Below are positions 18,307-40,848 of a stretch of DNA of 64,000 nt, piece by piece. Under the pieces are notes generated by a model. It saw nothing but the letters and a program-made list of their open reading frames with translations, did no database searches and was not told the origin of the DNA. The position numbers were made by a program, and so were the translations under genes. The stretch is from Minisyncoccota bacterium. GTDB taxonomy: Bacteria > Patescibacteriota > Minisyncoccia > Phycocordibacterales > PALSA-1337. The stretch is taken from contig JBAYFZ010000001.1 of assembly GCA_041666915.1 (NCBI GenBank), forward strand, positions 354,508 through 418,507, written 5' to 3'. Position 1 is the stretch's first letter, and each line of letters begins with the position of its first letter.

Positions 18307-18362
18307 AGCGACTATAAAAAAACGACTAAATCCTTAGAGCCTGAAGCATACGACGAAGATAT

Positions 18363-18758: not shown

Positions 18759-18837
18759 TTGATTACAGTTATTCGAAAACTATCCAAGAATAATCTAAGC
18801 TGATTTTCATCCTTTCGTAAATTAGACTTGTCTCAAT

Positions 18838-19287: not shown

Positions 19288-19316
19288 TTTATTAAATACC
19301 CTTGATTTGTTCTTTG

Positions 19317-19790: not shown

Positions 19791-19853
19791 ATAATTTATC
19801 GTTAACGAATGATATGTCTCATCTTAGTAATCTATTCGATACTACAAATATAA

Positions 19854-20747: not shown

Positions 20748-20818
20748 AAATTTGTTTAATTATTATCTAGAAATTGATTTTTATATTACTTTTAAGTACA
20801 TTTTCAAAGCTTCACTCA

Positions 20819-21094
20819 TTACCAAGTTAACCTTAAGAAAGACAGAAATCTATAACAAATCGAAACATATCTTTTTAGAATAATTACAGATCCACAGACT
20901 CGATCATTATTTAAGTTCAAATCGGTTGCAATAGGCTTAAGCTGATTTTCAATTTTCTTCATATATTCAACATAAGCATTACCGTAGTGATTGATATTGT
21001 ATACAGAGATATTAAACCACTTAAGCTCTTTCTCCATTCTTCCTATTACCAATTCAAAATCATCAGTATAATTAACTTGATGAAAAATCAACAA
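20819..21094 (-). CDS. hypothetical protein
   Basis: 91-aa ORF. Confidence 0.3.
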   Translation of the reverse strand: MLIFHQVNYTDDFELVIGRMEKELKWFNISVYNINHYGNAYVEYMKKIENQLKPIATDLNLNNDRVCGSVIILKRYVSICYRFLSFLRLTW

Positions 21095-21126
21095 CCAATA
21101 ACCATCTTCTTGTGATATTTTTTGGT

Positions 21127-21900: not shown

Positions 21901-21986
21901 TTATAAATATAATTTAACTATTAAGCTAGAGAAGATTAATCCAAAAAAACTAAATATGTACTTATTACAAAACTTTCTTCCAATTT

Positions 21987-23039
21987 TTAATAAGCATTGA
22001 ATTGAGCAGGGTCCATATAGCTCGTCTCAGCAGTACCACCAATCACGGGATTGAGTGTAATGGTAAACTTTGAGTATTTAACGTATTGACTGTCTTCCGT
22101 TGTTGTAATATCAAAAATATCATCAAATGACTGCGAGTTAGCACTTTTTACGAAGGTCTTATTTACTGTATCCCAGTCCACCCCTTGCATAAATGCAAGC
22201 AAATATTTTCCATCCGATATGTTTGTTATGGTGTAAGTGTTCTCAGCTCTGACGTAGACTGTGAAAATCGATGTGCCGTTGCGAAGCAATTTTGCTACAG
22301 CGTCATGGCTCGTTCCGTTTTTTATTAGGAGTTGACCATCACCATCCAGATAACTAGAAACCTTCTTAAACACATAACCATTATCAAGCGAATATGGGAC
22401 GGTTAAACCTGCTTGCCTGTCCTTAAGAAATTGTTGATGTGCCGTCGTTGTTGAATTAAATACTTCGTCAGACTTGTTAAGCCATGTACAATAATCCGGT
22501 TCAAATAGGCTTATAAGGCCACCAGCGCTACATGAGGCTTTAATTTTAGCTTGGGTAGCTTTCATGGCGTCACACTTTGCTCTCGTGGTAGGGTCTAATT
22601 TGTCCGTAGGTGTGTCTATGTGAAGACACTCTACTTCCTTACCAAGTTGGTCAATTTTCGTTGTGTCGATATGTTGAATCGGAGTTATGAATGAAGGTAA
22701 TGACGTTGGTTGTGGCAATGGCATTTTGGTTCCTCCGGTGTTTGAATCACTATCGCCAGAATAAGCCCAAGCAATAAAAATTATCACCGCAACGACTACG
22801 ACACATTTATTAAAGATAGCTTTTTTAAGAAACCTTGTGGCCATAGCGGTATAGTCTTTTACCAGTCTGATTTTTGCTTCGTAACCTTTATAAAACTTGT
22901 CGCTCTCGACTGTTTCTTTTACAGCACTAAAATGATTAGATGCATTATTTGCTATGCTTTCCACTAAAGAAAGCAGGCAGTACGGACATTTAATCGCCTT
23001 ATCATGAATCTCTTTTTTACAAAATGGGCATTTTTTCAT
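21987..23039 (-). CDS. membrane-anchored protein with N-terminal zinc ribbon and extracytoplasmic domain
   Basis: CPFCKKE...CPYC, a single TM (VVVVAVIIFIAWAY), then a ~250-aa domain. Confidence 0.4.
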   Translation of the reverse strand: MKKCPFCKKEIHDKAIKCPYCLLSLVESIANNASNHFSAVKETVESDKFYKGYEAKIRLVKDYTAMATRFLKKAIFNKCVVVVAVIIFIAWAYSGDSDSNTGGTKMPLPQPTSLPSFITPIQHIDTTKIDQLGKEVECLHIDTPTDKLDPTTRAKCDAMKATQAKIKASCSAGGLISLFEPDYCTWLNKSDEVFNSTTTAHQQFLKDRQAGLTVPYSLDNGYVFKKVSSYLDGDGQLLIKNGTSHDAVAKLLRNGTSIFTVYVRAENTYTITNISDGKYLLAFMQGVDWDTVNKTFVKSANSQSFDDIFDITTTEDSQYVKYSKFTITLNPVIGGTAETSYMDPAQFNAY

Positions 23040-23057
23040 GTTATTTGATTACACTTC

Positions 23058-23552
23058 CTAGTAAATTATCTGCTTGCAAGTTGAACATTTAACATCTTCG
23101 TATAGGTTTTTATTGACTGGCACCCTTAGTCGCTGGCCGCATTTTCTACAAATTACGATCTCTTTTTCTGCAAAGTACTTAATCTTTATAATTTTTATGA
23201 AAATAATTAGTCCTACTAGTGAAATCGGTATAGTAAACAATAAGATTTTTGGATCGCTAGCTCCTGTAAATATCTGAAATAAAATAAACGGTATAGCTAG
23301 ATAAAGATAAAAATATGTTTTAAAAACATGAGCTCTATCCAGGTTGACCTTCTGTTTCTGATATTGAGTCTTGCTACTGTTATAAAATCCTAAAAAGAAT
23401 CGATCTGTCTTACCTTCCCATAATCGATAAGAATCAAGTGGTATGATTGGAAGAAAAAATATAATAAACCACTCGGTGGCCACATATGAACCATCAGGTT
23501 TCTTATTACTCGCACCATAATATATGGTGCCTATACCATTGAATGAAGACAT
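23058..23552 (-). CDS. membrane protein with C-terminal zinc ribbon
   Basis: TM helices plus CRKCGQ...CSTCKQ. Confidence 0.4.
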   Translation of the reverse strand: MSSFNGIGTIYYGASNKKPDGSYVATEWFIIFFLPIIPLDSYRLWEGKTDRFFLGFYNSSKTQYQKQKVNLDRAHVFKTYFYLYLAIPFILFQIFTGASDPKILLFTIPISLVGLIIFIKIIKIKYFAEKEIVICRKCGQRLRVPVNKNLYEDVKCSTCKQIIY

Positions 23553-24144
23553 TTTAAATCATTTTACAAACACAAAAAGCCCACCACGGGTAGAGGCCGA
23601 AGCCCCTCATATCAGTTTCCCGATATGGCAGATTAAGGCGACCCCATGATGGGTTCTTTGTCCTTAATCTGACTAACTTTTCACCATGCCAGAAATCACT
23701 TATTTCTGGTTTAGGCTACTTATACATATTCAGTTGTATGTTTAGGATACCACTCTATTACGTCCATGCCAATATTCAGCTCTTTAACAATCGTGTAATG
23801 CATGTCTCCCTTCACCACATAATAGTGTATAATAAAGCTATGAAATACGCTTATCTATCCATAATAATTCTTTTAATAATCAGTGGTTTTTATTGGTTTC
23901 AGTTGCGACCAAGCCAAATTAAAAAACATTGTTTTTATACCAGTGCAACATTAAAAGAAAATTTATCGCCTCATGCCGATTTAACTTCTCCAGATAGCTT
24001 TAGTCTCGCCAGCGTAGAAGCACAATCCAATTACCATTCTTGTTTAACCTCGAATGGACTTTAAGGTTGAACTCGAAGAAAAAATGTGATGTAAGTCACT
24101 ATCCACAGTTTTTTTATTTCTATTTGGTTGATATAATGTTGCTC

Positions 24145-24705
24145 AACATTCAATAGTGAATGTTGAAATTGACAACACATGCTCGCTTGCCTGAACAACA
24201 AGCACACAAGAGCGACCGGTTATCCCCGAGATTCCTTAGACGGGTACTCTAGCAGGGACAGTGATGTCCCATGCTAGCGTTCACTAGTAATGGGAACATC
24301 GGATTTATTTTCGAAGTTCTTGTTAAGAGTGCCGGTCTAAGGAATTTTTGCGTATTGTTTCGCCTCATCTGTACATCACGAATTGATGTGCGGATTCTGG
24401 CGGAATTAATACCGCAGAAGCAGAGTGTCGATAGCTCTTATCTGGCAGAAACGCCAGGAAGTTTGATTTTGCAATACCATGCAGAAAACAAACAAAAGTC
24501 AGATCTGCTTTCCGTCAAAAGACGGTCTCAAGTTGATCTGCAACGCCGTTGATAGGTACGGTGACGGACAGTTGTGGGAAACCATCTCTGGACGTTGGAT
24601 TCCTATCGATATAGAAAATGCACCGGCTTTTACCAGTGCATTTTCAAGAAAATCCTGACGTGGTTTTTCTTACACAACCGCTCCCGCAAGGGAGCTTTTG
24701 TGTTT
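24145..24705 (+). ncRNA. candidate structured ncRNA / non-coding transcription unit of unknown class
   Basis: Extended -10 promoter TGATATAAT at 24129-24137. The region has elevated GC and many hairpins (e.g. CAACATTC-AATAG-GAATGTTG; GAAAATGCACCGG...CCAGTGCATTTTC). Terminator GCTCCCGCAAGGGAGCTTTTGTGTTT at 24680-24705. The only ORF (24271-24552) has no RBS and low-complexity content. Confidence 0.4.
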
Positions 24706-24847
24706 GAGTTATTATATTATAGACTACGAACGGCTTGTCAAGGAAGCATAAAACCTGTGTATAGCAATTTTATGATTAACAAATAATAAAAAGTCAAACT
24801 TAAAACTGCCCTATTGGCTTTAAATATGTACAAAAACGCGTCTCAAA

Positions 24848-25387
24848 ATGTCACAATGGACTAAAGATTTTATTGGCATTATACTATTGGTTATGATCAA
24901 TGAAATACAAACGGAAAAAGATTTCTCTGAACAACTTATTAAAGGAAAAATTACTGAGCTTGTCTTTGAACGAATGTTTCGTACGGTTGGACACTTTACT
25001 GTGATACCTTTCGGTTATGAAAATACTTTGCCCGAAATAGTCCAGTATCAACACTTGGCAAAATATCCTCAAGTCTTTGATACAATCAAAACAGCTCCCG
25101 ACTTTGCAATTGTATCTCATGACAGAAGTGAGGTTTTTCTAGTTGAAGTCAAGTACCGAACAGGTCATACCGATAAAGCTATACTAGAGCTAGCAGGAGA
25201 AATTCAAAAGAAATGGAAACTTGTTAGATTGTTTCTTGCCACACCTTCTGGTTTCTATTTTGATTCCTGTAGTAACATCATTAAAAATGAAGGTAAAATA
25301 TCCACTCTTGGACCACAATGGGTAAATGATGAGGTACAAAAGGAATACCTAGAACTATTAAATCAATTTATCATTAGACCTAACTAA
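24848..25387 (+). CDS. PD-(D/E)xK nuclease-fold protein
   Basis: PDFAIVSHDRSEVFLVEVKYR contains D...EVK spaced as in restriction-endonuclease-like folds. Confidence 0.5.
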   Translation: MSQWTKDFIGIILLVMINEIQTEKDFSEQLIKGKITELVFERMFRTVGHFTVIPFGYENTLPEIVQYQHLAKYPQVFDTIKTAPDFAIVSHDRSEVFLVEVKYRTGHTDKAILELAGEIQKKWKLVRLFLATPSGFYFDSCSNIIKNEGKISTLGPQWVNDEVQKEYLELLNQFIIRPN

Positions 25388-25437
25388 AAATATCTACCGT
25401 TTATTACGGGGACTTTTCTATTTTAACAAGGCAAAAA

Positions 25438-27318
25438 CTAATCGTTCTTACTCTTAGATGTAACCCAACTTTCTTCAAGATCAACGGTACCACTATTTGG
25501 TCGTCTCGATTTCTCAAGAAGCTCAATATCGACTTTAACCGGTATATCCGAAGCTAATCCAGCAACAAAACAACTTCCCACAGAAAGAATTGGAATGCTT
25601 TGAAATGACAATTTATCAAGATAAGCGACAGCTTTTTCTACTGCGCTTATATCATTATCATTTATAAGTCTATGAATAAAATAGTTATGTAGCTGAGAAA
25701 TTATTGTGGCTGATATATCATAAGGCCTTTGGCTTGCAATAGTTAGAAAGACACCAAATTTTCTTCCCTCCTTTATAATTTCTTCAAAAGTCTCTAGACG
25801 ATAATCCTTCCATGTCTCACTTTCTCGCTGAGACATTGTGGAGAGAATATTATGAGCCTCATCTATAATTATATGTAGCGATTTTTTGTCAGACTCCTTT
25901 TTGTTTTCGTACAACTGTTTCGCAATTATTAGCGGAACAATCTTCTTCATCTCAATATTTACATCTCTTAAAGAAATGACGGATAGATTCTTTGATTCGG
26001 GGCTATCTTTAATATCAATCAGTTTCTCCAACATATCAAACTTTCTGAACATTCTGCCCACTAATGGTCCAATATGTTCTTGGTTTGAATATCCCTTTAC
26101 GATTTCATGAAAATAATTAAAAACGATTTTCAATTTCAGCTTACTAAATTCGTCAGCCTTAAAGACCAGTGCATCCACAGATGTTTTAAGTCGAGTGTCG
26201 TATATAGGGTTTTTATTGTTGTAATTATTGCCATCATTTGATGCGTCCCAGTAATACTCCTTTGTAAGGGAGTGATAGTGTAGTTTATTTTCAATATCTT
26301 TTTTAAGTGCAATTACATCATCCTTCTTCTCATCTGTAACAAGATTTATCAGGTCTCTAAAAAGCTCGATGATTACCCCTTCTCTAAGGTTTCCATCCTT
26401 CTTATCAATAACACCAGTACACAGATCTTCGATACTTGTAATAGCTCGAGTATTAAAAGTCGTATTATCATCAAGATAATCATTACGTATAACTCTATCG
26501 AGAAAGGGCTTTTGTGTTTTTTCTGTTGCCTCCAGTAAAACAGACAGGATTTCTGTCTTGTGAATACTTTCTCTAGGAAGCGGGTATTTTTTCTTACTGC
26601 CTTTTTTACCAGTTGATAGCTCATAGACCACTTTGTCTTTCGTAATCATTTCATCACCAGTATATTCACCATTGAAATCAATTATCACAAAATCTGATTT
26701 GGTTTTGAAATCACCTTGATCTGAGAATGTTTTAAAAAGCTCAGTGTATATTTTCGCAAGTGTATTTGATTTACCGCTTCCGGTGTTGCCGAAAATACCA
26801 ATATGGCTGGCAAACAATTTATTAACACCTAGCTTTATCTTTTGTGACGGCTCTTCTGTTAGACTGCCGACCGCAATAGTTTTGTCACCCTTTTTGTAAA
26901 ACTGGTGAAGTACATTAAATTCATCTCTATTTAGCAAATAGCACTCATTATCGATCAAGGGCATTTCTTTTATACCCTGCTTTACACAATTACCTTCAAA
27001 ATGACCAAAGAGAGACAATTGCAAAACCCTATTTATCCTAGTCTCTTCTTTGTTGTATTCTTTATTAAAAAACTTTTCTTCAGAGGTAAATTCGCCCTCA
27101 ACTTTTCCAATAATACTCACGAAACCCTTTACTATCTTTACATAGCTACCTACAGACACATTTTTTACAGTTTTTCCTTCGAATAAAATATGCGAATGAT
27201 TTTTATTTTTATTTAGTTTTACCCTAACAATTCTACCGTCAACTGAGAGAACGCGGCCAATTATAAAAATCGACTCTTGCATCAATTCTTGCTCAATTGT
27301 TTTACTCTTTGTCTCCAT
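25438..27318 (-). CDS. herA: HerA-like (DUF87) ATPase, partner of SIR2 in the SIR2-HerA antiphage system
   Basis: N-terminal HAS-barrel-like segment, Walker A GNTGSGKSN, Walker B HIIIDEAHN, and the GRKFGVFLTIASQRP motif typical of HerA/FtsK-like ATPases. Confidence 0.8.
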   Translation of the reverse strand: METKSKTIEQELMQESIFIIGRVLSVDGRIVRVKLNKNKNHSHILFEGKTVKNVSVGSYVKIVKGFVSIIGKVEGEFTSEEKFFNKEYNKEETRINRVLQLSLFGHFEGNCVKQGIKEMPLIDNECYLLNRDEFNVLHQFYKKGDKTIAVGSLTEEPSQKIKLGVNKLFASHIGIFGNTGSGKSNTLAKIYTELFKTFSDQGDFKTKSDFVIIDFNGEYTGDEMITKDKVVYELSTGKKGSKKKYPLPRESIHKTEILSVLLEATEKTQKPFLDRVIRNDYLDDNTTFNTRAITSIEDLCTGVIDKKDGNLREGVIIELFRDLINLVTDEKKDDVIALKKDIENKLHYHSLTKEYYWDASNDGNNYNNKNPIYDTRLKTSVDALVFKADEFSKLKLKIVFNYFHEIVKGYSNQEHIGPLVGRMFRKFDMLEKLIDIKDSPESKNLSVISLRDVNIEMKKIVPLIIAKQLYENKKESDKKSLHIIIDEAHNILSTMSQRESETWKDYRLETFEEIIKEGRKFGVFLTIASQRPYDISATIISQLHNYFIHRLINDNDISAVEKAVAYLDKLSFQSIPILSVGSCFVAGLASDIPVKVDIELLEKSRRPNSGTVDLEESWVTSKSKND

Positions 27319-28321
27319 GATTCATGCTATTTAAGACTTCACTGAGGACCGACTGATTGATTTTTTCTAGGTTAAATCTACTTGCTGGCTCATCATCTGA
27401 GGGTTCAATGATTTCAATATTTGAATACCTCAATTTTCCAAGTTGCATTTTTGTCTTCATACTTGAATCCGTATCCTTTCCGTGGCAAAACACATAAATT
27501 TTTAGTGTAGGATTCGATTCTGCTGCTCTTATCGTTATTTCTCGAATATGTTCATCTTCCATAGAGAATCCTAGAACAAAAAGAACGGTATTTTCTTTTT
27601 CCAGTTCACCTGAATACATTCTGAGCAATTCGTAGTAAGTTACATCGATTACCGTTTCTTCAAGTTTTTTCCTTTCTGGATTTACTATTGCTAATCTTTC
27701 ATAACCAGCCTCAAAAGCTCGTTGTCCCTTTTTTAACAAAGATTTATCGAAATGTTCTAGCTTTGAAAAATGAATTTTATTTTCAACCTTTTCCCATGTC
27801 AAAGATCCGTGGACTTTCATAAGATTAAACAAAGGTATTTCTGAAACATTCTCATAGTGCAAACTTCTTTTTTGTATTGATTTTTTAAAATTACTCAGGC
27901 TAAAAGTAGCATTTAATCGACCATTGAAACCATCGTTATATTCAAGACTACTATCTTCCAAAACAGTTTCCATCAGTATATCTATGTTTGTAGTAAATAT
28001 GTTAACTTGCTTACTGAGAATTGTATTCTTGCGCTTCAAAAGTATACGTGCAAGCATTTCAAAAAAATCCTTATACGCCTTACATGTTGTATCAAAATCG
28101 CCTTTTTTAGCTATTGATTTACTAATAATTTCAAGATTAGGAATTATTACTCTCTCAAAATACTCCTTCTTTATCTTTACCCGCTCAGATTTCTTTTTTT
28201 CGCTAGATAAACGAGTCTCAATATCACCAAGTATTGGCAAAAACGGTGTTGAAAGACCAGCCCCAACTAGGACATTTATGTGCGAGCTCTGTATGGCCTC
28301 TTTTATTTCTTGAGGTTTCAT
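27302..28321 (-). CDS. SIR2-family (DHS-like NAD-binding) protein, SIR2-HerA antiphage system
   Basis: VLVGAGLS (GAGxS), IFTTNIDIL (TTNYD-like) and MKVHGS (HGS) motifs; overlaps the herA start by 17 nt. Confidence 0.8.
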   Translation of the reverse strand: MKPQEIKEAIQSSHINVLVGAGLSTPFLPILGDIETRLSSEKKKSERVKIKKEYFERVIIPNLEIISKSIAKKGDFDTTCKAYKDFFEMLARILLKRKNTILSKQVNIFTTNIDILMETVLEDSSLEYNDGFNGRLNATFSLSNFKKSIQKRSLHYENVSEIPLFNLMKVHGSLTWEKVENKIHFSKLEHFDKSLLKKGQRAFEAGYERLAIVNPERKKLEETVIDVTYYELLRMYSGELEKENTVLFVLGFSMEDEHIREITIRAAESNPTLKIYVFCHGKDTDSSMKTKMQLGKLRYSNIEIIEPSDDEPASRFNLEKINQSVLSEVLNSMNHGDKE

Positions 28322-28650
28322 AAATTTTCCAAAGAATAAATATCAAAGGCGACCTCATCGTATGGATGAATTTTTTTGACTGCTTTAACAAGCTCAGAAA
28401 GATTTTCACGAGCGCACACGGTCTCAATTCTTTCTTCGGCTACTTCTTCAAATTTACCAACTTCGCCGATATGCGGATCCGCTCCCGCATCGGGTCTGAA
28501 CCGACCAGTTCCCTTCGAGGAGAAGGTGCAGAAACTGTAATTACCGATCTTACCAGCTCCGGCCTTACCCATAGCTTCACGAACCACATCGGTATGGGTT
28601 TCTGGTACGAAAACAACAATTTTTACATTCCTACTTGCAACTGATTTCAT
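28318..28650 (-). CDS. small CutA/PII-like fold protein (family uncertain)
   Basis: 110 aa; the VVFVPETH...AGAGKIGNY...HPYDEVAFD pattern resembles small PII/CutA-like or Nif3-insert-like proteins; stop overlaps the SIR2 start (ATGA). Confidence 0.35.
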   Translation of the reverse strand: MKSVASRNVKIVVFVPETHTDVVREAMGKAGAGKIGNYSFCTFSSKGTGRFRPDAGADPHIGEVGKFEEVAEERIETVCARENLSELVKAVKKIHPYDEVAFDIYSLENL

Positions 28651-28738
28651 TATGTGGTCAACTTTAGCACTTTTTATAGAAAAAATATACTAATCTATGA
28701 TGCCAAAAAGTAAACAAAAGTAAACATTTTTAATACGT

Positions 28739-29149
28739 TTATTTATCATCTTGCGGCCTCAAGAATCGGTAATTACCAATCGTCTTAAGAAGTCTATTAG
28801 CTTGCTGTTTTGCACTCTTGGGACTATAACCAGCAATAATTGCTGCTTGTGTAGCGTTACAAGAAGTGAGATACGCTTCCAGAAACCTTAACCTCCGCAT
28901 ATCCTTGGCACACAAAATTGTACCTTGATCATAAAGAGCGCCAACTAGTTCATATATTAGGCGCCTGTATGGTCTATAAAAGATGATTCTGGTGAGCAAC
29001 ACAGCCTCTTCTGTTGAAAATTTAGGGAATCTTCCGGTACGCCCATACTTTTGTCGAAGCAGTTTCTCGTCGAATACCATACCTGCCCAGATCATAACCA
29101 TATCCCGTGTATTCATTGTTCTCTTACTTTGTATATTCTTGTCGCTCAT
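28739..29149 (-). CDS. phage terminase small subunit-like protein (orphan)
   Basis: C-terminal AYLTSCNATQAAIIAGYSPKSAKQQANRLL matches the Terminase_2/P27-type HTH signature; no large subunit nearby. Confidence 0.6.
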   Translation of the reverse strand: MSDKNIQSKRTMNTRDMVMIWAGMVFDEKLLRQKYGRTGRFPKFSTEEAVLLTRIIFYRPYRRLIYELVGALYDQGTILCAKDMRRLRFLEAYLTSCNATQAAIIAGYSPKSAKQQANRLLKTIGNYRFLRPQDDK

Positions 29150-29248
29150 ATATTTATATGCACGCAGGCTTAGCTATACAATCCATCGTTCGAAAGTCGT
29201 AAGCCAGCGCGAGCCAATATTGACTTTTATGATATACTTTTAAACATT

Positions 29249-29635
29249 ATGTTAGAAGGTCTAGAAGACACAATCACAGAGACCAACTTGTCAGCCGAGA
29301 GCAATGATATTTTTGAATTTAAAGATGAAGATGGTGATAAAAGTATCGGAGTTATCGTCGGAGAATATATCGTATTCGCAACAGAACAAATCGACGGAAA
29401 GTGGACTGTAAATTTTGCTTTAAAGGATGAATTAAAAGGTAGTTCATGGATGGATACTCTTACAAACAAAGGAGCGTTTTCTACGATAATTGAGCTTAAG
29501 CCAGCTTTTGAAAAAATAATTAATCAATTGGAAAAAGAGGGTAAAGATTGGTTTTGTGCTTGTGACGAAAGAAGAGCAAAGCTCTATGCCAGATACATCC
29601 CTAAAGAAAAAATTCAGATTGTCGATAAAACTTGA
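29249..29635 (+). CDS. hypothetical protein
   Basis: 128-aa ORF. Confidence 0.35.
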   Translation: MLEGLEDTITETNLSAESNDIFEFKDEDGDKSIGVIVGEYIVFATEQIDGKWTVNFALKDELKGSSWMDTLTNKGAFSTIIELKPAFEKIINQLEKEGKDWFCACDERRAKLYARYIPKEKIQIVDKT

Positions 29636-29743
29636 TTTAAACAAAATAATTCCTTGTCCACTTTTTGCCAGTTAACAATTCTGAACTCGTCCAACAGTTC
29701 TATTCATACTTGACAAACTCTACGGATATGATAAGATACCATA

Positions 29744-30096
29744 GTCGACGATAAGTGAGCTGGTTGTCGATACGGCCGAAAGGCAATGTAAATTAGCTCT
29801 CGGGGTTTGTATCCGTCAACGGGAGATACCCCTAAACGAACAGTTGATTTGGTACATCAAAAAAGTCGGCACTTGAGCATAAGCTCAGCCCATCATCGGC
29901 GCAAGCTCGTTAGTTATCTGATCCTGCGAGTAGCACCGGCAGAGGGCACTTTGCCGACACAAAAGAAAGAGTGGCACGATGTGCATGTCTAGCTTGCACG
30001 CCACAGGTTTGGTGGTACTTAGTCTCCACCCGATGAAGTACGCGACTTCATGAGTCAATTCGCCCGGAACCACCACTTTGGTTCCGGGCTTTTTTA
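29744..30096 (+). ncRNA. candidate structured ncRNA of unknown class
   Basis: Promoter TTGACA-16-TAAGAT at 29710-29737. A ~350-nt GC-rich ORF-free region ends in the terminator GCCCGGAACCACCACTTTGGTTCCGGGCTTTTTT. The small ORFs inside (29807-29992 and 29885-30076) look spurious. Confidence 0.4.
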
Positions 30097-30100
30097 TTTC

Positions 30101-30190
30101 CTCATGTCCTTCATAAACAACGACTGATTGTAAATTCCCTACATGTATTCCCTATCTGAGAATATGGTTATAATAATCTCATGTTCGGGG
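30101..30190. repeat. ~90-bp repeat R copy 1 (CTCATxxCTTTCATAAACAA...GTATTCCCTATCTGAGAATRTGGTTATRATAATCTCA)
   Basis: ~85% identical to copies at 32141-32230 and 34367-34455; each follows a rho-independent terminator. Confidence 0.75.
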
Positions 30191-30201
30191 ATGGCATACA
30201 A

Positions 30202-30897
30202 TTATTTTTCGTTATCGTGCATTACTTTCAATAAAAAGATGGTATCAGTCTTTAACTTTGCACGAGCAGAATCCTTCTGTGAATCAGTGATCAATTCACC
30301 AAGCCCATCTAAAATATGTTTATTATCCATTGACTCCAACATGGCAATACATTTCTCTAATGCTTCCTTATATGGAACTCCCGATCTTTCTTCCACAATC
30401 TTGCGGTTAATAGGCCAGTTATTTTTAGCAAAATACTGAACATCAAAAATATCACGACTTGTCTTACCGATTCGCTCAAACATTGCCATCAACTTATGTG
30501 CAAACATGTCTTCTTGGACCATTACGAGCATTGAGATGCCGAGATATGTTTTCATTTCATACTTTGAGCCAAGTTGGCGACGATTCACCTCAACCTTAAT
30601 TTTCTGAGCATTAGTATCATAAGAGATAACATTCTTTAAATTGAATCTCTGCATGTATGAATCAGTAATTTTGCCGTAATTACTTACAATCTTGTTTATT
30701 TTCTCAAAAACGTCCTTTTCTTTTGTCTCATCCAACAAATCAAGATCCAAATCTACAGAGTTTCTGGGCAAATCATAAAACATCATAGCTGCGGTACCAC
30801 CTTTGAATCCCAAATAAGGTGCAATAGAGGTATCAGAATAGATATCTTTTAAGATCTGTAACAAGATATTCTTATGTTTTGAGTAATCTAATGTCAT
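30202..30897 (-). CDS. abiEii: AbiEii/AbiGii-family nucleotidyltransferase toxin (type IV TA / abortive infection)
   Basis: LGFKGGTAAMMFYDLPRNSVDLDLDL matches the DUF1814/AbiEii signature. Confidence 0.75.
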   Translation of the reverse strand: MTLDYSKHKNILLQILKDIYSDTSIAPYLGFKGGTAAMMFYDLPRNSVDLDLDLLDETKEKDVFEKINKIVSNYGKITDSYMQRFNLKNVISYDTNAQKIKVEVNRRQLGSKYEMKTYLGISMLVMVQEDMFAHKLMAMFERIGKTSRDIFDVQYFAKNNWPINRKIVEERSGVPYKEALEKCIAMLESMDNKHILDGLGELITDSQKDSARAKLKTDTIFLLKVMHDNEK

Positions 30898-31478
30898 ATA
30901 ATTTTTTGATATTCTTTTACCTTCTTTTCTAAACGCTTGTTGTTATAAATTGGTAATATTTCCATCACCTTATTCCAATCCAATGAACGCAAATTATCAA
31001 AGTGATAATCTTTGCTTACATATACACGGTCTAAAAAGGCACGTTCACGTGATGCGGTGGCAATACCACTTGTATGTTCTATTCCCATTGAATTACTCAA
31101 AACGTAATCTTTCATCCGAACGAAAGTAATTTTTTGATCACCAATTGTAATTTCTCGATTCATGTATGATGCAACGAAAATATTTCCGTAATATTGGAAA
31201 TTTACCCCTTCACGAGTCAAAATGGTTTCAAAGCTAATATATGATGGGGTGTAGATACGAGTTGCTAATTCGAAACGATTGTAATTTTTATCTTTAGCAT
31301 AAAATCCTCTGTGAACTCTGATCAACTTTTCCGCTTTTACATAATAGTTCAAACGGACCCTAGCCGCTGATTCATTTTGTTCCCCCCACATCAAAACCAC
31401 ATCCTTTGTTGAAAAGATGGTCTGGGGTGATCTTAATAAGATCTCCAAAAATTCGCCTTTTGTGGGTTTATTATCCAT
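30894..31478 (-). CDS. abiEi: AbiEi-family antitoxin / transcriptional regulator
   Basis: KLIRVHRGFYA motif typical of AbiEi N-terminal domains; stop overlaps the abiEii start by 4 nt. Confidence 0.65.
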   Translation of the reverse strand: MDNKPTKGEFLEILLRSPQTIFSTKDVVLMWGEQNESAARVRLNYYVKAEKLIRVHRGFYAKDKNYNRFELATRIYTPSYISFETILTREGVNFQYYGNIFVASYMNREITIGDQKITFVRMKDYVLSNSMGIEHTSGIATASRERAFLDRVYVSKDYHFDNLRSLDWNKVMEILPIYNNKRLEKKVKEYQKII

Positions 31479-31595
31479 ATTGTTGCTGGAAGTTAGTTTT
31501 AACCTAACATCCAGTCACAATATTAGCATATTCTAAGAAAATCAACAATATGTGCACTAGATTAGTACTTCAGGCTAGAATTCAATAGATATATA

Positions 31596-31624
31596 TTGAC
31601 AGTATATCCTACATATGCTATAAT
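31596..31624 (+). promoter_or_regulatory. sigma-70-type promoter TTGACA-17-TATAAT
   Basis: Perfect -35 and -10 hexamers with 17-bp spacer, 39 bp upstream of the 31663 ORF. Confidence 0.6.
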
Positions 31625-31662: not shown

Positions 31663-32085
31663 GTGAAAACAATATTAGTCGGTATTTTCTTCATGAGCCA
31701 ATTGATTTTGGCTTTGGGACAAAATGATCCCACCGTACGGTATCCGGCCATCAACAATAATGTGTTCACGAATATGATTTCGTGGAACGCTCTTATGACC
31801 GACACTTATGCGTGGCCGATCATAGCAACCGAGGTCGTCGTCGATCAGCCAATACCTTCGAAGGTGTCATTGGAAATCTTCAAGATCCAGAATGACCCGG
31901 ATTACGGCAACGGCACCCTGGTAACCTCTACCAAGACGAACGAGGTGTGTCTAGTCCAGTCATCGGTTGACCTGAAAAACTGGACAATGGAGACGAATTC
32001 TCCGCTTGTCATAGCAGGCTATACCGCCTACTATTTCTATCCGGAAGATGGAGCGAAAGTAAAATTTTACCGGACACGCAATTGA
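31663..32085 (+). CDS. secreted hypothetical protein
   Basis: Signal peptide MKTILVGIFFMSQLILALG; 140 aa; followed by a terminator and R copy 2. Confidence 0.5.
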   Translation: MKTILVGIFFMSQLILALGQNDPTVRYPAINNNVFTNMISWNALMTDTYAWPIIATEVVVDQPIPSKVSLEIFKIQNDPDYGNGTLVTSTKTNEVCLVQSSVDLKNWTMETNSPLVIAGYTAYYFYPEDGAKVKFYRTRN

Positions 32086-32956: not shown

Positions 32957-33111
32957 ACAATTATTTTTCGTTTCTATGCCTTTTAATAAAAACTTTATTA
33001 GACCTAAATATTAGTATATTTTAAGAAAAACGACAATATAAATCTTGTGTGTACAAATGTTGCAGTGGATGTATAATAGTGTTAACTTATCAATCTAATC
33101 TCATCAATGCT

Positions 33112-33399
33112 ATGGTCGACAATCAAAACAATGAGGAACTCATAAAAAAAGCTGACATCCAAAAAATCGCTGAAAAAGGAAAGACTATATATGAGCAAAT
33201 AAAAGTGATCTATGATCCGAAGGAAAAGGGTAAGTTTTTGGCTATTGATGTTGATAGCGAGAAGGTTTATCTTGGAAAGACTAGTGCTGAGGCGGTAGTA
33301 CTCGCAAAACAAAATCATCCTAACAAAGTCTTCTATGTAGTAAAAATCGGTTTTGATGTCGCAGAAACGATGGCAAAGTCATTTCTGGAATACAAATAA
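33112..33399 (+). CDS. small hypothetical protein, translationally coupled to the downstream aspartic protease
   Basis: Start taken at the internal ATG at 33112, because a TGTATAAT -10 element lies inside the longer track ORF. Stop TAA at 33397-33399, one nt before the next ATG. Confidence 0.4.
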   Translation: MVDNQNNEELIKKADIQKIAEKGKTIYEQIKVIYDPKEKGKFLAIDVDSEKVYLGKTSAEAVVLAKQNHPNKVFYVVKIGFDVAETMAKSFLEYK

Positions 33400-33400
33400 T

Positions 33401-33766
33401 ATGATCAAAGGCGTCTTTACTGAAAACATGCCGCTTTTTCCGGTACTTGTAGCTTGGGGTCAATCCGTCCAGGCTCCTTTTGTAATTTTGGACACAGGAT
33501 TTACCGGTGATTTACAAGTCACACCAGAGATAGCAAAAGAATTGGGACTGAAAGTCACAGGTGTCATAAATGTTCGTATAGCCAACGGACAAGTCGTGGA
33601 GGTCCCCACGGCTTTGGCTTTCGCCGTGATGGAAGGCATGAAAAATTACATCGATGTTTTGATATCTGACAGTATGCCGCTCGCTGGTATTAGCTTTCTT
33701 TCAAAATTTAACTATAAGGCTATAGTTGACTGTAAATACAAAACGGTCAATCTTGAAAGGGTTTAG
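33401..33766 (+). CDS. retropepsin-like (clan AA) aspartic protease
   Basis: ILDTGFTGDL contains the D-T-G active-site triad in a hydrophobic context; size ~120 aa is typical of single-domain bacterial retropepsin-like proteases. Confidence 0.55.
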   Translation: MIKGVFTENMPLFPVLVAWGQSVQAPFVILDTGFTGDLQVTPEIAKELGLKVTGVINVRIANGQVVEVPTALAFAVMEGMKNYIDVLISDSMPLAGISFLSKFNYKAIVDCKYKTVNLERV

Positions 33767-33864
33767 TTGTATGGAACTTAGATAATCTATAACATACTCC
33801 AAATCAACCTAAAAATAATTGACACATGTTTCTAACTATGATTAGATAAAATCATAGTAGTTTT

Positions 33865-34311
33865 TTGACATACATGGATAGTGGCCTTAAAGAAGCCCTG
33901 GCAGTCCAAACAATCTGCCTAAATAAAGTAATTATGATAAACAAGAAACTGTCACGGACGAAAATGAAAACTATGAAATTCAAGAAAATACTAATATGGT
34001 CATTTATCAATGGCCAACCTCACAAACTATTAACAAAAGAGGAATCAAAAATCGCAAACACTATGGGCGTCCTTCATACACTTTTTCCTGGAATCAACTA
34101 TTACTCAACCTCTGGTTTCCACACTGCTGTAAGCACATGTGTTCAACCTGTTCTGGAGAAACTTTTCCCAGAACTTATCGGCACAAGAAACGATAGTATG
34201 ACTAGGGAGGATAAAGTGGAGATCAGTGTATTTCTTCCATCAAAAGGATATGAGTGGCAAGATAGCAAAGTATGGAGACGAAAGTTCGAAAAACTCTTGG
34301 CTACCAAATAA
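33865..34311 (+). CDS. hypothetical protein
   Basis: 148-aa ORF followed by the terminator CCCGCCCGAAC...GTTCGCGGCGGGTTTCTTTTTT and R copy 3. Confidence 0.35.
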   Translation: MTYMDSGLKEALAVQTICLNKVIMINKKLSRTKMKTMKFKKILIWSFINGQPHKLLTKEESKIANTMGVLHTLFPGINYYSTSGFHTAVSTCVQPVLEKLFPELIGTRNDSMTREDKVEISVFLPSKGYEWQDSKVWRRKFEKLLATK

Positions 34312-34366
34312 ATCCCCCGCCCGAACACGAAGCCCATCGCTTCAGTTCGCGGCGGGTTTCTTTTTT

Positions 34367-34455
34367 CTTCTCATCGCTTTCATAAACAATAACTGATTGT
34401 ACATCCTCTATATGTATTCCCTGTCTGAGAATGTGGTTATGATAATCTCAGGTTC
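34367..34455. repeat. ~90-bp repeat R copy 3
   Basis: See copy 1. Confidence 0.75.
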
Positions 34456-34630
34456 GGAAAGTGTTGCACTTCAGAGTGGAATTTTAGGAGCCAAGTTGAC
34501 AACATTGATTAAAAGATGTAATTTAAGTCTAAATTGCTCTAACAAAATTAAAACGAAGGTAAATTATGAAATCAGGAAGAAACGTCGCACTTGCGAACAA
34601 TGATAGATTTTTTCTCTTCATCGTATTCAA

Positions 34631-34984
34631 ATGATTGAAAAACTTGGTTTAACAGTGATATTTTGTAGGAACACAAAAGAAGTTCTTCAATCATTCGAAA
34701 AACCAGAAGACGAAAGACCTTTCCTTCTCATTACTGACAACCTACTTGCTCATGGTGGTGAATTTAAATCATCGGAAACAAATGGTGGAAGAGATACCGG
34801 TGTAGCTATATACAAAAAGTTACGCCTACAAGACCCACGGCTTCCAATCATCATACACACCATTGAAGATCGTACCATCCGAGAGCTTCAGGGACTTAAT
34901 GACCCATTTATGGTTGCAATCTATGACCGCGCTTCTAATTCAAAAGAAAAAATGCTTGAAGCAATAAAAAAATTCAACCATTGA
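34631..34984 (+). CDS. receiver (CheY-like) domain-like protein, possibly degenerate
   Basis: The LLITDNLL...PIIIHT...K layout resembles REC domains; it is preceded by a 22-codon ORF whose stop overlaps its ATG. Confidence 0.35.
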   Translation: MIEKLGLTVIFCRNTKEVLQSFEKPEDERPFLLITDNLLAHGGEFKSSETNGGRDTGVAIYKKLRLQDPRLPIIIHTIEDRTIRELQGLNDPFMVAIYDRASNSKEKMLEAIKKFNH

Positions 34985-35140
34985 GACTTCTGCGCGATTG
35001 ACCCTCCAGTAAAATGGAGGGTTTTTCTTTTACCCAAAACATACCTCATCCAAAAGTTCTAAAAATGTCCTACCAGACCCTGAATTGTCACTCTAATCGC
35101 AATCCTTGACAAACAACAACCAACATGCTATACTACCCTA

Positions 35141-35566
35141 GTCCTTCAAAGACGGACATCTAGTACAAAAACCCGCCGTGAAGATTATCATTATTGACAC
35201 GGCATAACGGCAAAAGAAAGGAGAATTGCTCCTCCAAACTGGAAAATTCGAAAAGCTAAGTAGTCTTAAAGGTAACAGCGATATTCTGCCCTTATTATGC
35301 GAATTGCGCATGTGCAACTAGCATCATATTAAGGGTAAGAAATAACTGTTACTGGCGGAACAAAAAGCGAGTACGAATGGACTGGGCGATCCACTTGAGA
35401 ATTTCTCTTTGGATCATAGGGGGGTTCGTCACATGACGTGAAAAAATGCGCTGACCGACAAGGTCACCTGGAGACAACCAGAGAAACCGTGTGGAAGGAA
35501 AACCACCGCAGTGTAACGCCACAAAAATTTCCATAGCTCGTCTTCAGGTGAAGACGAGTTTTTTTA
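35141..35566 (+). ncRNA. candidate ~425-nt ncRNA of unknown class
   Basis: Strong promoter TTGACA-17-TATACT (35106-35134) and terminator CTCGTCTTCAGGTGAAGACGAGTTTTTTT (35537-35566). No credible ORF between them; moderate GC with many hairpins. Confidence 0.45.
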
Positions 35567-35627
35567 TACCTGAAATAGGGTTAAACTCACGATAAAAATT
35601 TCTCATTAATATGTTAAAATTATAGCA

Positions 35628-36173
35628 ATGCAAGAATTTTATAATAAACACTCCAAAATTATTATTTTTGGCACTTTCGCCCTAGTAGCAATCATTGAAC
35701 TTCTCATGGGTCGCAATTTATGGTGCCCAGCTGGCGATATTTCTATTTGGTCAATTGATATAAATTCAATACACAATTCTCAACACCTTATTGACGCTTA
35801 TTCTTTGACCCACATTTCACACGGTATAATTTTCTTGATCCTACTTTCAATTATTCCCTATTTCAAAAAAAGTACTTTCTCAACTAAACTCCTAATCGCA
35901 GTATTTATAGAATCATTTTGGGAAATTATTGAAAATTCCAGCATCATCATAAACCGTTTTAGAGAATCAACAATTTCACTAGGTTACCTTGGAGATAGTA
36001 TTGCCAATTCATTATCTGATATCATATTCATGATGCTTGGCCTATGGATCGCTTCAAAGATGCCAACAAAATATGCATTTACCCTTGTAATCATATTTGA
36101 AATAGTCTGCTACCTACTTATACGTGACAATCTTATTCTAGAAATTATTCAAATTATTCATCCGTTAAAATAA
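35628..36173 (+). CDS. integral membrane protein, hypothetical
   Basis: 181 aa, ~5 TM helices. Confidence 0.45.
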   Translation: MQEFYNKHSKIIIFGTFALVAIIELLMGRNLWCPAGDISIWSIDINSIHNSQHLIDAYSLTHISHGIIFLILLSIIPYFKKSTFSTKLLIAVFIESFWEIIENSSIIINRFRESTISLGYLGDSIANSLSDIIFMMLGLWIASKMPTKYAFTLVIIFEIVCYLLIRDNLILEIIQIIHPLK

Positions 36174-36480
36174 TCATTCATGCAAAAAATTTCAACTCGC
36201 ATCTTCATCTGTGCTTCAATAGCTTTCGGAATTGTCGGTCTTTGCTTGGTCTTATTTGGTGGACAAAATGATAATGCCCCAGTCAACCAATTTATTATGA
36301 GATTACTTATGACTTGTGTCTTTATCATACTTCCATCTTTCGCACTGAGTGTTGCGGGTAAATATCTCAAATAGCAGGAAATTGAATCCGCCAATACTTT
36401 TCTTGCCTCAATCGCTTTTCTGTTGTAGAGTCGTAGAGTCACAATAGTCCTTTAACAACTCAACAAAGAAAGGAGCTTAT

Positions 36481-37254
36481 ATGCCCTTACTTCCCTATAT
36501 CGGTATTACCGATTTCACCAATTTCGAGCAAGTACAAAGGATGCTCGGAATAATGCACAAGCAAAAACCTAAAGATTCCAGGCGACAATTACATGTCGGT
36601 GTCATGATGAGCCGTAAAACGCTCAACAACATTGAAACAGAATGGTCAAAAGTTTTTCCACCAAAAGAGGTGATTGCTAGCATCTTTGGTTCTGGTGAAA
36701 CTTACAATTGTCTCCATTATGCTGACTATAAAAACAAAGTGTGGTTCTCCGGTGACCTGTCTAGAGCAATCGGTTACGGCGGTATCGGTATCAATGCTGT
36801 ACAACTGGACATGACATGGCCAGATCCAGGTCAAATCGCAGATGCTATACATACGTCACGAAAACAAATTGAAGTAATCCTTCAAATTGGCAGAGGTGCG
36901 ATTGAAGGAGCTAACAACAATCCTGCAGAGATTATTCAACGACTCAAGGATTACGAAGGAGTGATCCATCGTGTCTTGCTCGACAAGAGTATGGGACGAG
37001 GTATTTGTATAGACGCCACGGGACTCATTCCATTTATATCGGCAATCAAGAGGCAGTTTCCAGACCTTGGAATTACCGTTGCTGGTGGCCTCAACCATGA
37101 GACCTTATTCATGATTGAACCACTCATCAAAATGTTTCCTGATCTAAGCATTGATGCTCAAGGGAGACTTCGACCAAGTGGTAATCCTCTCGATCCGATT
37201 GACTGGGATATAGCAGAAAAATATCTCTCTAGAGCTTTGAGGCTCTTGAAGTAA
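36481..37254 (+). CDS. phosphoribosylanthranilate isomerase (TrpF)-like TIM-barrel protein
   Basis: Colinear blocks YIGITDF (KICGIT-like), HVGVMM (VGVF), AVQLD (QLHG), RVLLDKS.GRG (LLD..GGTG), ITVAGGLNHE (ILAGGL..eN). Confidence 0.45.
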   Translation: MPLLPYIGITDFTNFEQVQRMLGIMHKQKPKDSRRQLHVGVMMSRKTLNNIETEWSKVFPPKEVIASIFGSGETYNCLHYADYKNKVWFSGDLSRAIGYGGIGINAVQLDMTWPDPGQIADAIHTSRKQIEVILQIGRGAIEGANNNPAEIIQRLKDYEGVIHRVLLDKSMGRGICIDATGLIPFISAIKRQFPDLGITVAGGLNHETLFMIEPLIKMFPDLSIDAQGRLRPSGNPLDPIDWDIAEKYLSRALRLLK

Positions 37255-37407
37255 ATTATTTAAACAAAAAACCTATCTCGTGGTATACACCATGAGGCGG
37301 GTTTTCTTTTTTATAAATCCCCTATTTCTTTTACGTCATTTGACAACCAAATCCGAAAGTCATACTGTAGTACCAGTAGTTATTCAATAAAAAAGAAAGA
37401 TTAGATT

Positions 37408-37596
37408 ATGAAAAAGTTTTCTCAAATCCTCGGAAAAGCTGGCATTATGTTCGTGGCGGTCGGTTTCTTGTCCATGATACTAGCGATCTTCCACGCGATA
37501 ATACGCCTTGATACATATGTAATCGGACTAATACTGTTGATTGGAATAGTAATGGTAGCCGTATCACTATTCCTCGCTTCAAGGTTAAGGGGTTAA
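37408..37596 (+). CDS. small membrane protein
   Basis: 62 aa, two TM helices; terminator at 37654-37697. Confidence 0.4.
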   Translation: MKKFSQILGKAGIMFVAVGFLSMILAIFHAIIRLDTYVIGLILLIGIVMVAVSLFLASRLRG

Positions 37597-37716
37597 TGTG
37601 GATGCTGTAGAAGTGATATCAGAGTCCCCGCCTTCATCGCGCTAAAACATACGAAACCCGCACACAGAAACCTGTTGTACGGGTTTCTCTTTTTTATAAT
37701 GAAATTTTTCTCCCAT

Positions 37717-37745
37717 TTGACAAATACCACTAACGTGCTAATATA
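37717..37745 (+). promoter_or_regulatory. promoter TTGACA-16-TAATAT within a reused promoter module (TTTTTTATAATGAAAT...CATTTGACA)
   Basis: Similar modules occur near 37300 and 38380, upstream of small genes. Confidence 0.45.
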
Positions 37746-37816
37746 TTCCTAATTGCGTCAAAGTAACTTTGAGCAAGTGCACAAACTAAAAACAAAATAG
37801 AATACAAAGGTACGAT

Positions 37817-38329
37817 ATGAGTAAAAGCATTATAGCGTTAGCGGCCGAAGTCAATCTCTCAAAGGTAAAGCTTGAAACGGAAAAAATGGCCTCAGGCGAA
37901 GTGGCTGTCGGTGTAATGAGTAACGACCTGAAAAGATTGTTTTACCTATACAGCAAATCGGTAGACCTCCTGAACGGTATCAACCAAAAAATCAGAGAAA
38001 AAATGGCTGAACATGCCGAATCGCACAAAAAGGGTAACCCCCGCATCGAAAAATGTGCAAAACACTCGGCGGAAATGGATAAAATCGTGGCCGACAGGAA
38101 CGAGATTGCCATGAGACACGGGCAGCTGCATAACATTTTCTGGGGCGCTGTACGCATTGAATTCCCAGAGCTCTTGGATAAATGTACTATCAAGATCTGT
38201 GAGAATTTCACGGTGACCTACAAGAAAGAGAGTACACCAGCAGGAGTTACTGAAGAAATGCTCGCTATTCTGAAAGAGGCAATCCAACAAGCTCAGCAAA
38301 AACACAAGTCTAAATCATTCTCTCAGTAG
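37817..38329 (+). CDS. hypothetical coiled-coil protein
   Basis: 170-aa ORF with its own promoter and terminator (38338-38390). Confidence 0.4.
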   Translation: MSKSIIALAAEVNLSKVKLETEKMASGEVAVGVMSNDLKRLFYLYSKSVDLLNGINQKIREKMAEHAESHKKGNPRIEKCAKHSAEMDKIVADRNEIAMRHGQLHNIFWGAVRIEFPELLDKCTIKICENFTVTYKKESTPAGVTEEMLAILKEAIQQAQQKHKSKSFSQ

Positions 38330-40330: not shown

Positions 40331-40548
40331 TTTTAAAAAACTGAATTTGATTGTCTATTTAGATGTTTTAAACTCCGTAAGCAACGCTTACTAGAAACAC
40401 CATTCTACCCTTGATGTTAGCATAGTTATAGCAAATAGTCAATAGATACGTATAGCCCATTGACAAATAACACCCAATATCTTATAATTGACACGGACAT
40501 CTGTTTTGTAGTCCAATTTCAAAAACAAATAAAGAAAGAAGGTACTCA

Positions 40549-40848
40549 ATGAAAGGTTCTCTCAAACTGTGTTTGTCGGCCCTTTACCGTTCGGTAACAT
40601 ATTCAGCGGTATCTTGTTTTGGGTTATTCATACTCTCAACAATAAACTCAATCCTTATTGAAGGTGGAATGGAAGGTGTCTGCTTGGAAAGTTGGGTGAT
40701 CTGGTTCTTTGCCCTACTATTCGTCGTCTTAACACTTTTGTTCTTTATCCGTAGTTTGTTCATAATCAGCGAAAACATACTTTCCGGCAAGACTGCGGAT
40801 GAAAGTCCCGTCAGATTAAAAGATATTATCAGCAGTATACTGCCCTGA
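40549..40848 (+). CDS. small membrane protein
   Basis: 99 aa, 2 TM helices. Confidence 0.35.
   Translation: MKGSLKLCLSALYRSVTYSAVSCFGLFILSTINSILIEGGMEGVCLESWVIWFFALLFVVLTLLFFIRSLFIISENILSGKTADESPVRLKDIISSILP

Follow-up and report, generated by a model that had tools for sequence, protein, structure and literature searches.

Which kind of gene lies between a strong promoter and a strong terminator when no credible open reading frame (ORF) is found between them? This question is raised by a unit of about 425 nucleotides (nt) on the + strand of the window, a 64-kilobase (kb) stretch of the 450-kb metagenomic contig k141_1421082 (ENA ERZ27249449), which belongs to Candidatus Paceibacterota within the Candidate Phyla Radiation (CPR, or Patescibacteria) and in whose positions all coordinates are given. 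The CPR combine minimal genomes with a poorly charted RNA biology, and in such reduced genomes each retained stable RNA likely matters. The initial annotation of this DNA had left two interpretations side by side, a structured noncoding RNA (ncRNA) or a long leader or riboswitch of the membrane-protein gene that starts at 35628. The reading that we favour, with a probability of roughly 0.6, is that 35141–35566 (+) is an independent gene for a structured, trans-acting ncRNA, about 425 nt long, from a family that Rfam 15 does not contain. It is carried mainly by a diverged homologue from another genomic context, in which the junctions and all testable helices are kept by compensatory changes, and the claim as a whole is provisional, as it comes from two sequences.

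Transcription unit

The promoter, of the sigma-70 type and close to consensus, consists of a -35 hexamer TTGACA (35106–35111) and, after a 17-nt spacer, an extended -10 element TGCTATACT (35126–35134), made up of TG at 35126–35127 and TATACT at 35129–35134. It matches 11 of 12 consensus positions, was the top site in a scan of 33000–38000 and is one of only five sites scoring at least 11/12 on both strands of the 64 kb. The same type of extended -10, TGCTATAnT, is also found before leaderless genes and before a second orphan unit on the contig, both of which are described below. Transcription is predicted to start about 7 nt past the -10, at 35141, and to end at 35566 in the U-tract of a terminator whose 11-pair stem (35535–35560, five G-C pairs) is followed by T7 and was the strongest in the scanned 5 kb. 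The terminator hairpin proper, CUCGUCUUC-AGGU-GAAGACGAG plus U7, occupies 35537–35565. Upstream, the gene for a protein of 117 amino acids (aa) ends with a separate terminator of its own at 35000–35023.

Stop codons interrupt all six frames across the unit, the ORFs on the + strand are all at most 34 aa long, and the longest ones (59 and 61 aa) are antisense. The predicted fold has a minimum free energy of -123.6 kcal/mol (z = -3.98), and none of 100 shuffled sequences was equally stable; when the terminator was removed, z was -3.27 on the + strand vs. -2.35 on the - strand. The unit had been described as hairpin-rich, bracketed by a promoter and a terminator, and devoid of a convincing ORF, and this observation is confirmed.

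A diverged homologue in another gene context

Five contigs of the same strain from other samples (L001–L005) are 100% identical to the window over 3.7–6.5 kb, and thus uninformative for comparison. In the Logan sample SRR6484324, however, the locus is split into two of these contigs (L005 and L002) that overlap by 26 nt (35486–35511), and at k = 31 such an overlap would imply that a 34-nt stretch, 35482–35515, is common to another sequence in this sample. A 20-mer taken from this stretch was used as query for a scan of metagenomes, and 10 matches were obtained: seven in one conserved protein gene, two unrelated, and one homologue of the RNA. This homologue lies on a 1512-nt contig (JGI Ga0114964_10092159, hereafter L140) and aligns with nt 71–430 of the RNA at about 77% identity over 280 columns (nhmmer E = 2.1e-34). 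The two sequences match exactly over 35482–35515, precisely the limits predicted from the assembly break, and for this reason an L140-like variant probably co-occurs with the window strain in SRR6484324.

The RNA is all that the two loci have in common. When L140 was compared by tblastx with the 64-kb window, the RNA alone was matched, in several frames, and the flanking genes were unrelated. On the 3' side of the L140 copy, the conserved terminator is followed by a stretch of about 170 nt, in which a separate promoter lies, and then by two small, unrelated membrane ORFs, while the other end of the contig is formed by a perfect 39-bp inverted repeat (1414–1512 of L140) that reaches the contig end and is probably an assembly fold-back artefact. 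This palindrome hides the 5' 70 nt of the homologue and its promoter. Further members were sought through gene order; here, the 117-aa neighbour had no homologue among 5.8 billion proteins, the neighbouring protein clusters were singletons, and DUF2585, the downstream neighbour, had one relative (68% identity) in another context. The ORFs of L140 were either missing from the protein collection or singletons as well.

Covariation and structure of the RNA

The two sequences were aligned with MAFFT without fitting to any structure, after the window sequence had been shortened by the distal 69 nt of one long hairpin (H3, see below) to let the two sides of the adjoining rod align. All 45 testable pairs in 10 helices were canonical in both sequences; in six of them both partners were changed, in two only one partner, and none was broken. 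In control registers slid by 1–3 nt, 37–57% of the positions were paired and 0–1 double changes were seen. The same covarying helices were returned by RNAalifold with no structure supplied (64 pairs, six compensatory, none broken), and in a permutation test the 10 substitutions that fall in 41 pairs kept all pairing, the best of 200,000 random placements reaching 40/41. With the base of H3 and hairpin H6 aligned by structure, 10 compensatory changes, two wobbles and no broken pair were counted among 50 pairs. Conservation is concentrated in the junctions, namely AAGUAGUCUUAAAG, UGGCGGAACAAAA, CUGGGCGAUCCACU, UUUGGAUCAUAGGRGGGUUC, GGAGACAACCA, the 34-nt block, CACAAAAAUU and the terminator loop. 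The hairpins vary: H3 measures 81 vs. 17 nt, H6 is replaced, H4 is 1 bp longer in L140, and the loops of M1 and H4 differ. Hairpins of variable length and sequence held together by conserved junctions are typical of functional structured RNAs, and both these general marks of a conserved structured ncRNA, pair-preserving substitutions and conserved junctions, are present in the two sequences. The comparative alignment for covariation that had been suggested at the outset hence speaks for the ncRNA half of the initial annotation.

From 5' to 3', the model begins with a region of two local hairpins (35141–35157 and 35175–35203, within 35141–35210) that has no counterpart in L140, whose contig ends in the palindrome, and continues with the core common to both sequences (35211–35536). 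The first core element is hairpin M1 (35219–35233), in which a Shine-Dalgarno-like AGGAG pairs with CUCCU; its stem is kept in L140 with a G-C to G-U change. It is followed by the 5' arm of a long-range helix, UGGAAA (35240–35245), which pairs with UUUCCA (35528–35533) close to the 3' end, just after a conserved CACAAAAA. The closing pair of this helix is U-A in the window and C-G in L140, and the helix is supported in each sequence separately. Inside it lies a rod of three short helices, with 5' strands at 35247–35249, 35255–35257 and 35264–35266 and conserved purine-rich internal loops between them (35247–35266); three of its pairs, in helices 2 and 3 of the alignment (M1 being helix 1), are changed on both sides in L140. 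The rod is capped by the variable arm H3 (35272–35352; 81 nt in the window, a 17-nt hairpin in L140), where five of the six basal pairs are changed on both sides in the structure-guided alignment. The 3' strands of the rod (35357–35359, 35366–35368 and 35375–35377) are embedded in the conserved junction UGGCGGAACAAAA...AGUA...CUGGGC (35353–35387).

Five hairpins separate the rod from the 3' arm of the long-range helix. H4 (35388–35415) has an invariant outer stem, GAUCCA/UGGAUC, and an inner stem that gains its additional pair in L140; it is joined through the conserved AUAGGRGGGUU (35416–35426, with a G-run at 35419–35424) to H5 (35427–35438), which shows one G-C to A-U change. H6 (35452–35466), UGACC-GACAA-GGUCA in the window, has at the same place in L140 the form GGC-GAAA-GCC with a GNRA tetraloop, and H7 (35468–35481) carries an invariant AGACAA loop closed by C-G in the window and A-U in L140. 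The most conserved part of the RNA is the 34-nt block AGAAACC-GUGUGG-AAGGAAAA-CCAC-CGCAGUGUA (35482–35515), which contains hairpin H8 (35491–35506) and is identical in L140. The loop and most of the stem of the terminator are identical too; in the stem, one pair goes from U-A to C-G and another from A-U to G-U.

Several motifs that suggest themselves in the window copy were discarded. Three hairpins (35221–35231, 35299–35309 and 35397–35407) have a common loop, G-N-G-AAUUK-C-N'-C, and the corresponding pattern GNGAATTKCNC has four matches in 128 kb, three of them in the RNA, where 1.1 would be expected. The palindromic AAUU loops could kiss but are not kept in L140, which speaks against three binding modules or kissing loops as a feature of the family, and these hairpins are either peculiar to the window copy or due to chance; a scan of contigs with the same pattern led to at least 120 tandem-repeat loci, none homologous to the RNA. 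A sarcin-ricin-like hairpin, AGUACGAAUGGAC, fails as a local hairpin in L140, an S-turn formed by AGUA opposite GAA across the rod is inconsistent between both sequences, and a sponge for CsrA-type proteins is not indicated by the GGA motifs, of which there are eight vs. about seven expected.

The alignment also bears on a protein-coding reading, which the initial annotation had named, in a frameshift-corrected form, as one outcome that would overturn its interpretation and which would make the unit a small protein gene or a decayed pseudogene. The 61-aa antisense ORF (35349–35534, - strand), dismissed as spurious from the start, was called by JGI, but in a search of 1.84 billion representative proteins it retrieved itself and two repeat proteins that owe their scores to 8–15 repeats of a short chance match. 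One frame, 35211–35264, has no stop in either sequence before a UAG common to both, yet its 17 codons include no start codon and only 2 of the 10 changed codons are synonymous. The ORFs and frames of L140 over the region are different ones, its indels do not preserve the frame, the tblastx conservation extends over several frames simultaneously, and the substitutions track base-pairing, not codons. With no conserved ORF and no protein homologues, a coding function is scarcely credible.

The downstream gene and the leader hypothesis

The second half of the initial annotation, a leader or riboswitch acting through the terminator on the membrane-protein gene downstream, finds some encouragement in the layout: the RNA lies on the same strand as this gene (DUF2585; 35628–36173, +), 62 nt upstream of it, and 35464–35475 is complementary at 11 of 12 positions to the terminator's loop and the arm 5' of it (35540–35551), as an antiterminator would be. 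The gene has, however, its own extended -10, TGTTAAAAT (35612–35620), which ends 7 nt before the ATG in a leaderless layout. Its nearest DUF2585 homologue (contig L006, 68% identity) is preceded by a divergent intergenic region of 122 nt without such an RNA, and in L140 the unrelated small ORFs mentioned above follow the RNA at a distance of about 170 nt, behind a separate promoter. The antiterminator-like complementarity is degraded in L140 (UCACCUGGAGAC to GCCAAUGGAGAC) while the terminator is kept, because the changes preserve hairpin H7 instead; the homologue thereby rules out the antiterminator idea. No riboswitch family of Rfam matched at E ≤ 10, and neither a conserved downstream gene nor a mutually exclusive terminator and antiterminator was found in the window and L140. 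Given the separate promoter of the DUF2585 gene, its RNA-less homologue and the unconserved antiterminator-like pairing, a cis-acting leader, riboswitch or attenuator is very unlikely, and so is any regulation of the adjacent gene by the RNA. The initial interpretation is in this way partly supported: its ncRNA half holds and its leader half does not.

The layout of the DUF2585 gene is a common one here. A Shine-Dalgarno sequence is missing from most genes of the window, and in many of them the start codon follows 6–8 nt after an extended -10, TGnTAnAAT (e.g., 2449–3156 on the - strand and 7414–9435, 9484–10017, 57464–59221 and 35628–36173 on the + strand), whereas a clear AGGAG is seen at a few genes only, such as those at 36481 and 38501. 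This pattern suggests that leaderless mRNAs are widespread in this Paceibacterota genome. Perfect sigma-70 promoters (12/12) occur at 31596–31624 and 40460–40488 (+), in front of genes with a real leader and a Shine-Dalgarno sequence, which are located at 31663–32085 and, for a membrane protein of about 92 aa, at 40570–40848.

Searches against known RNA families

At the gathering score of Rfam 15, no family was recognised in the RNA, and only LOOT and a tRNA-Arg were matched in the window. RNase P RNA, transfer-messenger RNA (tmRNA) and signal recognition particle (SRP) RNA gave no match at this score in the window and 10 kb beyond each end. The search with cmscan, which had been proposed as a check, was then relaxed to E ≤ 10 and covered 35135–35540 and 34950–35700 of the window as well as 1100–1512 of L140; it returned noise of 10–15 bits, the weakest listed match being at about 10 bits. 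Neither SRP RNA nor 6S RNA models matched the window RNA or L140 at this level, and the multi-hairpin architecture differs from a rod of the 6S type. A tmRNA is likewise not indicated: the family had no match at E ≤ 10, no tRNA-like domain was found, and ARAGORN detected no tmRNA or tRNA in the RNA with its default, -ps or -ps80 settings. At a 60% threshold it made only mutually overlapping junk calls, and in the tag frame proposed there a G to U change creates a stop in L140 (CCAGAG to CCAUAG). The depositors' pipeline does not seem to have recognised the RNA either, since the NCBI locus tags at this place (WCS89_02170 for the 117-aa gene, 02180 and 02185) leave none for it. The RNA matches no described RNA family and is new at the family level, and at this level only, given that a stand-alone structured bacterial ncRNA is a familiar kind of gene and that two sequences underlie the claim.

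A second orphan unit of about 480 nt was noticed on the same contig outside the 64-kb window, at ~70.4–70.9 kb when the numbering of the window is continued (~20100–20610 of the stretch L146). It lies within a 1-kb gene-free gap, has a TTGACA-17-TGCTATACT promoter and a strong terminator, is unrelated to the RNA by nhmmer, and gives no Rfam match at E ≤ 10 and no default ARAGORN call. At a 75% ARAGORN threshold, a permuted two-piece tmRNA was proposed for it (GGGGACGAUACGG... / ...CAUCCCCACC), which makes this locus a better, though weak, tmRNA candidate than the window RNA. Together, the two units represent stable RNAs of these genomes that standard annotation missed.

The main rival is the RNase P RNA of this lineage, or another housekeeping RNA, diverged beyond the standard models. 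CPR RNase P RNAs are diverged, lack helices and score below noise, so that thresholds far below the noise cut-off are needed to find them (PMC8172020). A stable housekeeping RNA would fit the length of about 400 nt, the strong promoter and terminator, and the combination of conserved junctions with variable arms; the 64-kb window and 20 kb of flanking DNA contained no RNase P RNA at the Rfam gathering score, and another probable stable RNA of the genome also escapes Rfam. There is in addition a loose parallel in topology, where the M1 hairpin is followed by an A-rich linker, a long-range helix and then a helix that encloses a length-variable arm. Some sequence resemblances are colinear: the conserved CACAAAAA that leads into the 3' arm of the long-range helix may be compared with ACAGAA, which stands before the 3' strand of P4 in the M1 RNA of E. 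coli, the L140 sequence GGAAAAUCCCG resembles the RNase P block GGAAAGUCCGG, and G.G.AACA.AAAGC and AUAGGGGUUCAU are equally loosely similar to blocks of the E. coli and B. subtilis RNAs.

Against this stands that the matches at E ≤ 10 on 406 nt, for either sequence, included none of the RNase P models, whether bacterial (A or B), archaeal, nuclear or of type T. P4, built from conserved region (CR) I (GGAAAGUCC...) and CR-V (ACAGAA-...GGCUUA) with a bulged U, is the most conserved part of RNase P RNA. On inspection, the blocks that resemble CR-I and CR-V are unable to pair in the RNase P register; what forms instead is a UGGAAA/UUUCCA helix of 5–6 bp without a bulged U, and identity between the two sequences is about 67% in the CR-I-like block vs. 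77% on average. Nothing in RNase P RNA corresponds to the 34-nt block that contains H8, the most conserved part of the RNA, and the five hairpins between the rod and the 3' strand are a misfit to type A, which has one there. No P2 was seen and no covariation-tested P1; a 7-bp pairing of 35149–35155 with 35538–35544 can be drawn, which would have to form at the expense of the 5' hairpin and the terminator, and which involves the end that is missing from L140. We consider an RNase P identity distinctly unlikely. The exclusion of tmRNA, RNase P and SRP RNA that had been made by eye agrees with the model searches, and is incomplete where RNase P is concerned.

Genomic neighbourhood

The RNA sits in a variable stretch, with the 117-aa ORFan upstream and the DUF2585 membrane protein downstream, and further upstream the window holds a variable or defence island (~12300–31500). 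Its tRNA-Arg (15021–15094, - strand) is flanked by two large serine recombinases (12362–13933 and 15438–16796), followed by a ParB-like gene (16798–17655), SIR2 (27302–28321) with HerA (25438–27318), a terminase-small-like gene (28739–29149) and AbiEi/AbiEii (30202–31478). A LOOT RNA (RF03000; 23592–23717, - strand), at 78.6 bits well above its gathering score, lies about 40 nt upstream of an ORF without a Pfam match (23058–23552, - strand).

Such surroundings raise the possibility that the RNA is accessory, i.e., an antitoxin-like, anti-defence or element-maintenance RNA of the island and not a core cellular RNA. The ORFan-rich context, the defence genes, recombinases, ParB-like and terminase-small-like genes upstream, and the unrelated genes around the L140 copy, as expected of a mobile module, are in favour of it, and with one homologue in the JGI scan the family seems rare. 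On the other hand, no partner protein is conserved beside the RNA in the two loci, and its immediate neighbours have no PADLOC or Pfam match. When IMG/VR was scanned for exact blocks with seven patterns, all matches were due to chance or to tandem repeats, four conserved blocks being absent, and blastn against phage and plasmid collections returned nothing. The RNA is not flanked by repeats and occurs once in the window and the 20 kb of flanking DNA, and 425 nt with an elaborate conserved fold are unlike known antitoxin RNAs. An accessory role appears unlikely on balance.

Proposed nature of the RNA

The reading of 35141–35566 as an independent ncRNA gene has several points weighing against it. 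Only two distinct sequences are at hand, their covariation amounts to about 10 events, which is below the use of R-scape, and a shuffle control on the two-row alignment is weak (5/500). The ends of the RNA are predicted from sequence signals, and the comparison with L140 excludes its 5' 70 nt. Some pairings have competitors: UCCUCC (35230–35235) can pair with the G-run at 35419–35424 instead of forming M1, with a U-G to U-A change in L140, and UUUCC has at least three candidate GGA-rich partners, flanking covariation being found only for 35240–35245/35528–35533. No protein gene is kept beside the RNA in both loci, and no specific function or partner is indicated. Finally, the second orphan unit on the contig is also without an Rfam match; standard models may thus fail on the stable RNAs of this genome because of their divergence, and the absence of a match is a weaker proof of novelty.

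Because only two sequences exist, any mechanism is a matter of inference. In the arrangement that the comparison with L140 supports, the long-range helix (35240–35245/35528–35533) closes the core of the RNA, from which the rod, its three 3-bp helices set apart by the conserved purine-rich loops, extends to its cap, the length-variable H3. The five hairpins H4–H8 with their highly conserved linkers follow, and then the conserved 3' stem-loop that doubles as the terminator. The conserved junctions and loops (AGACAA, AAGGAAAA and the 34-nt block) may form the functional surface, with the variable hairpins as scaffold, and the folded RNA would most likely act in trans, either as part of a ribonucleoprotein (RNP) or through a tertiary structure of its own, possibly as a catalyst. 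Tertiary contacts are suggested by the GNRA tetraloop that one variable hairpin carries in L140. As a more far-reaching and tentative possibility, the two sequences might be the founding pair of a class of large (300–430 nt), tertiary-structured RNAs specific to Paceibacterota or the CPR, that is, a new ribozyme or RNP subunit. The RNA would then represent either a new functional class or, should it be an RNase P RNA after all, one aberrant enough to redefine the minimal core of that ribozyme.

Comparison with known systems

Compared with RNase P RNA (RF00010/RF00011, including the CPR forms; PMC8172020), the window RNA is alike in length, in being a stand-alone gene with promoter and terminator in a CPR host, in the long-range helix that closes a multi-helix core after an A-rich linker, and in having variable arms and conserved joining regions, but it has no AAAGUCC or bulged-U P4 and no supported P1 or P2. 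With tmRNA, including the two-piece permuted form, it shares the length and, in its 3' half, small hairpins with A-rich linkers reminiscent of a pseudoknot string; unlike tmRNA, it has no tRNA-like domain, end pairing or conserved tag frame. LOOT RNA is a structured RNA of unknown function from the same genome and variable region, and differs in its unrelated sequence and structure, its 121 nt, its position directly upstream of an ORF and its recognition by Rfam.

Few bacterial ncRNAs reach several hundred nt and combine this size with an elaborate conserved structure; ribozymes and RNP scaffolds are among those that have been characterised. OLE, ROOL, GOLLD and raiA differ from the window RNA in that none of them corresponds to it in sequence or structure in Rfam 15, and the new RNA is hosted by Paceibacterota and has two members so far. 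It nevertheless resembles them in its several hundred nt, its elaborate conserved structure and its independent transcription, and, like these RNAs, whose function was unknown at discovery (Weinberg et al. 2017, PMC5737381), it comes from a variable region of the kind in which, like mobile ones, they are sometimes found.

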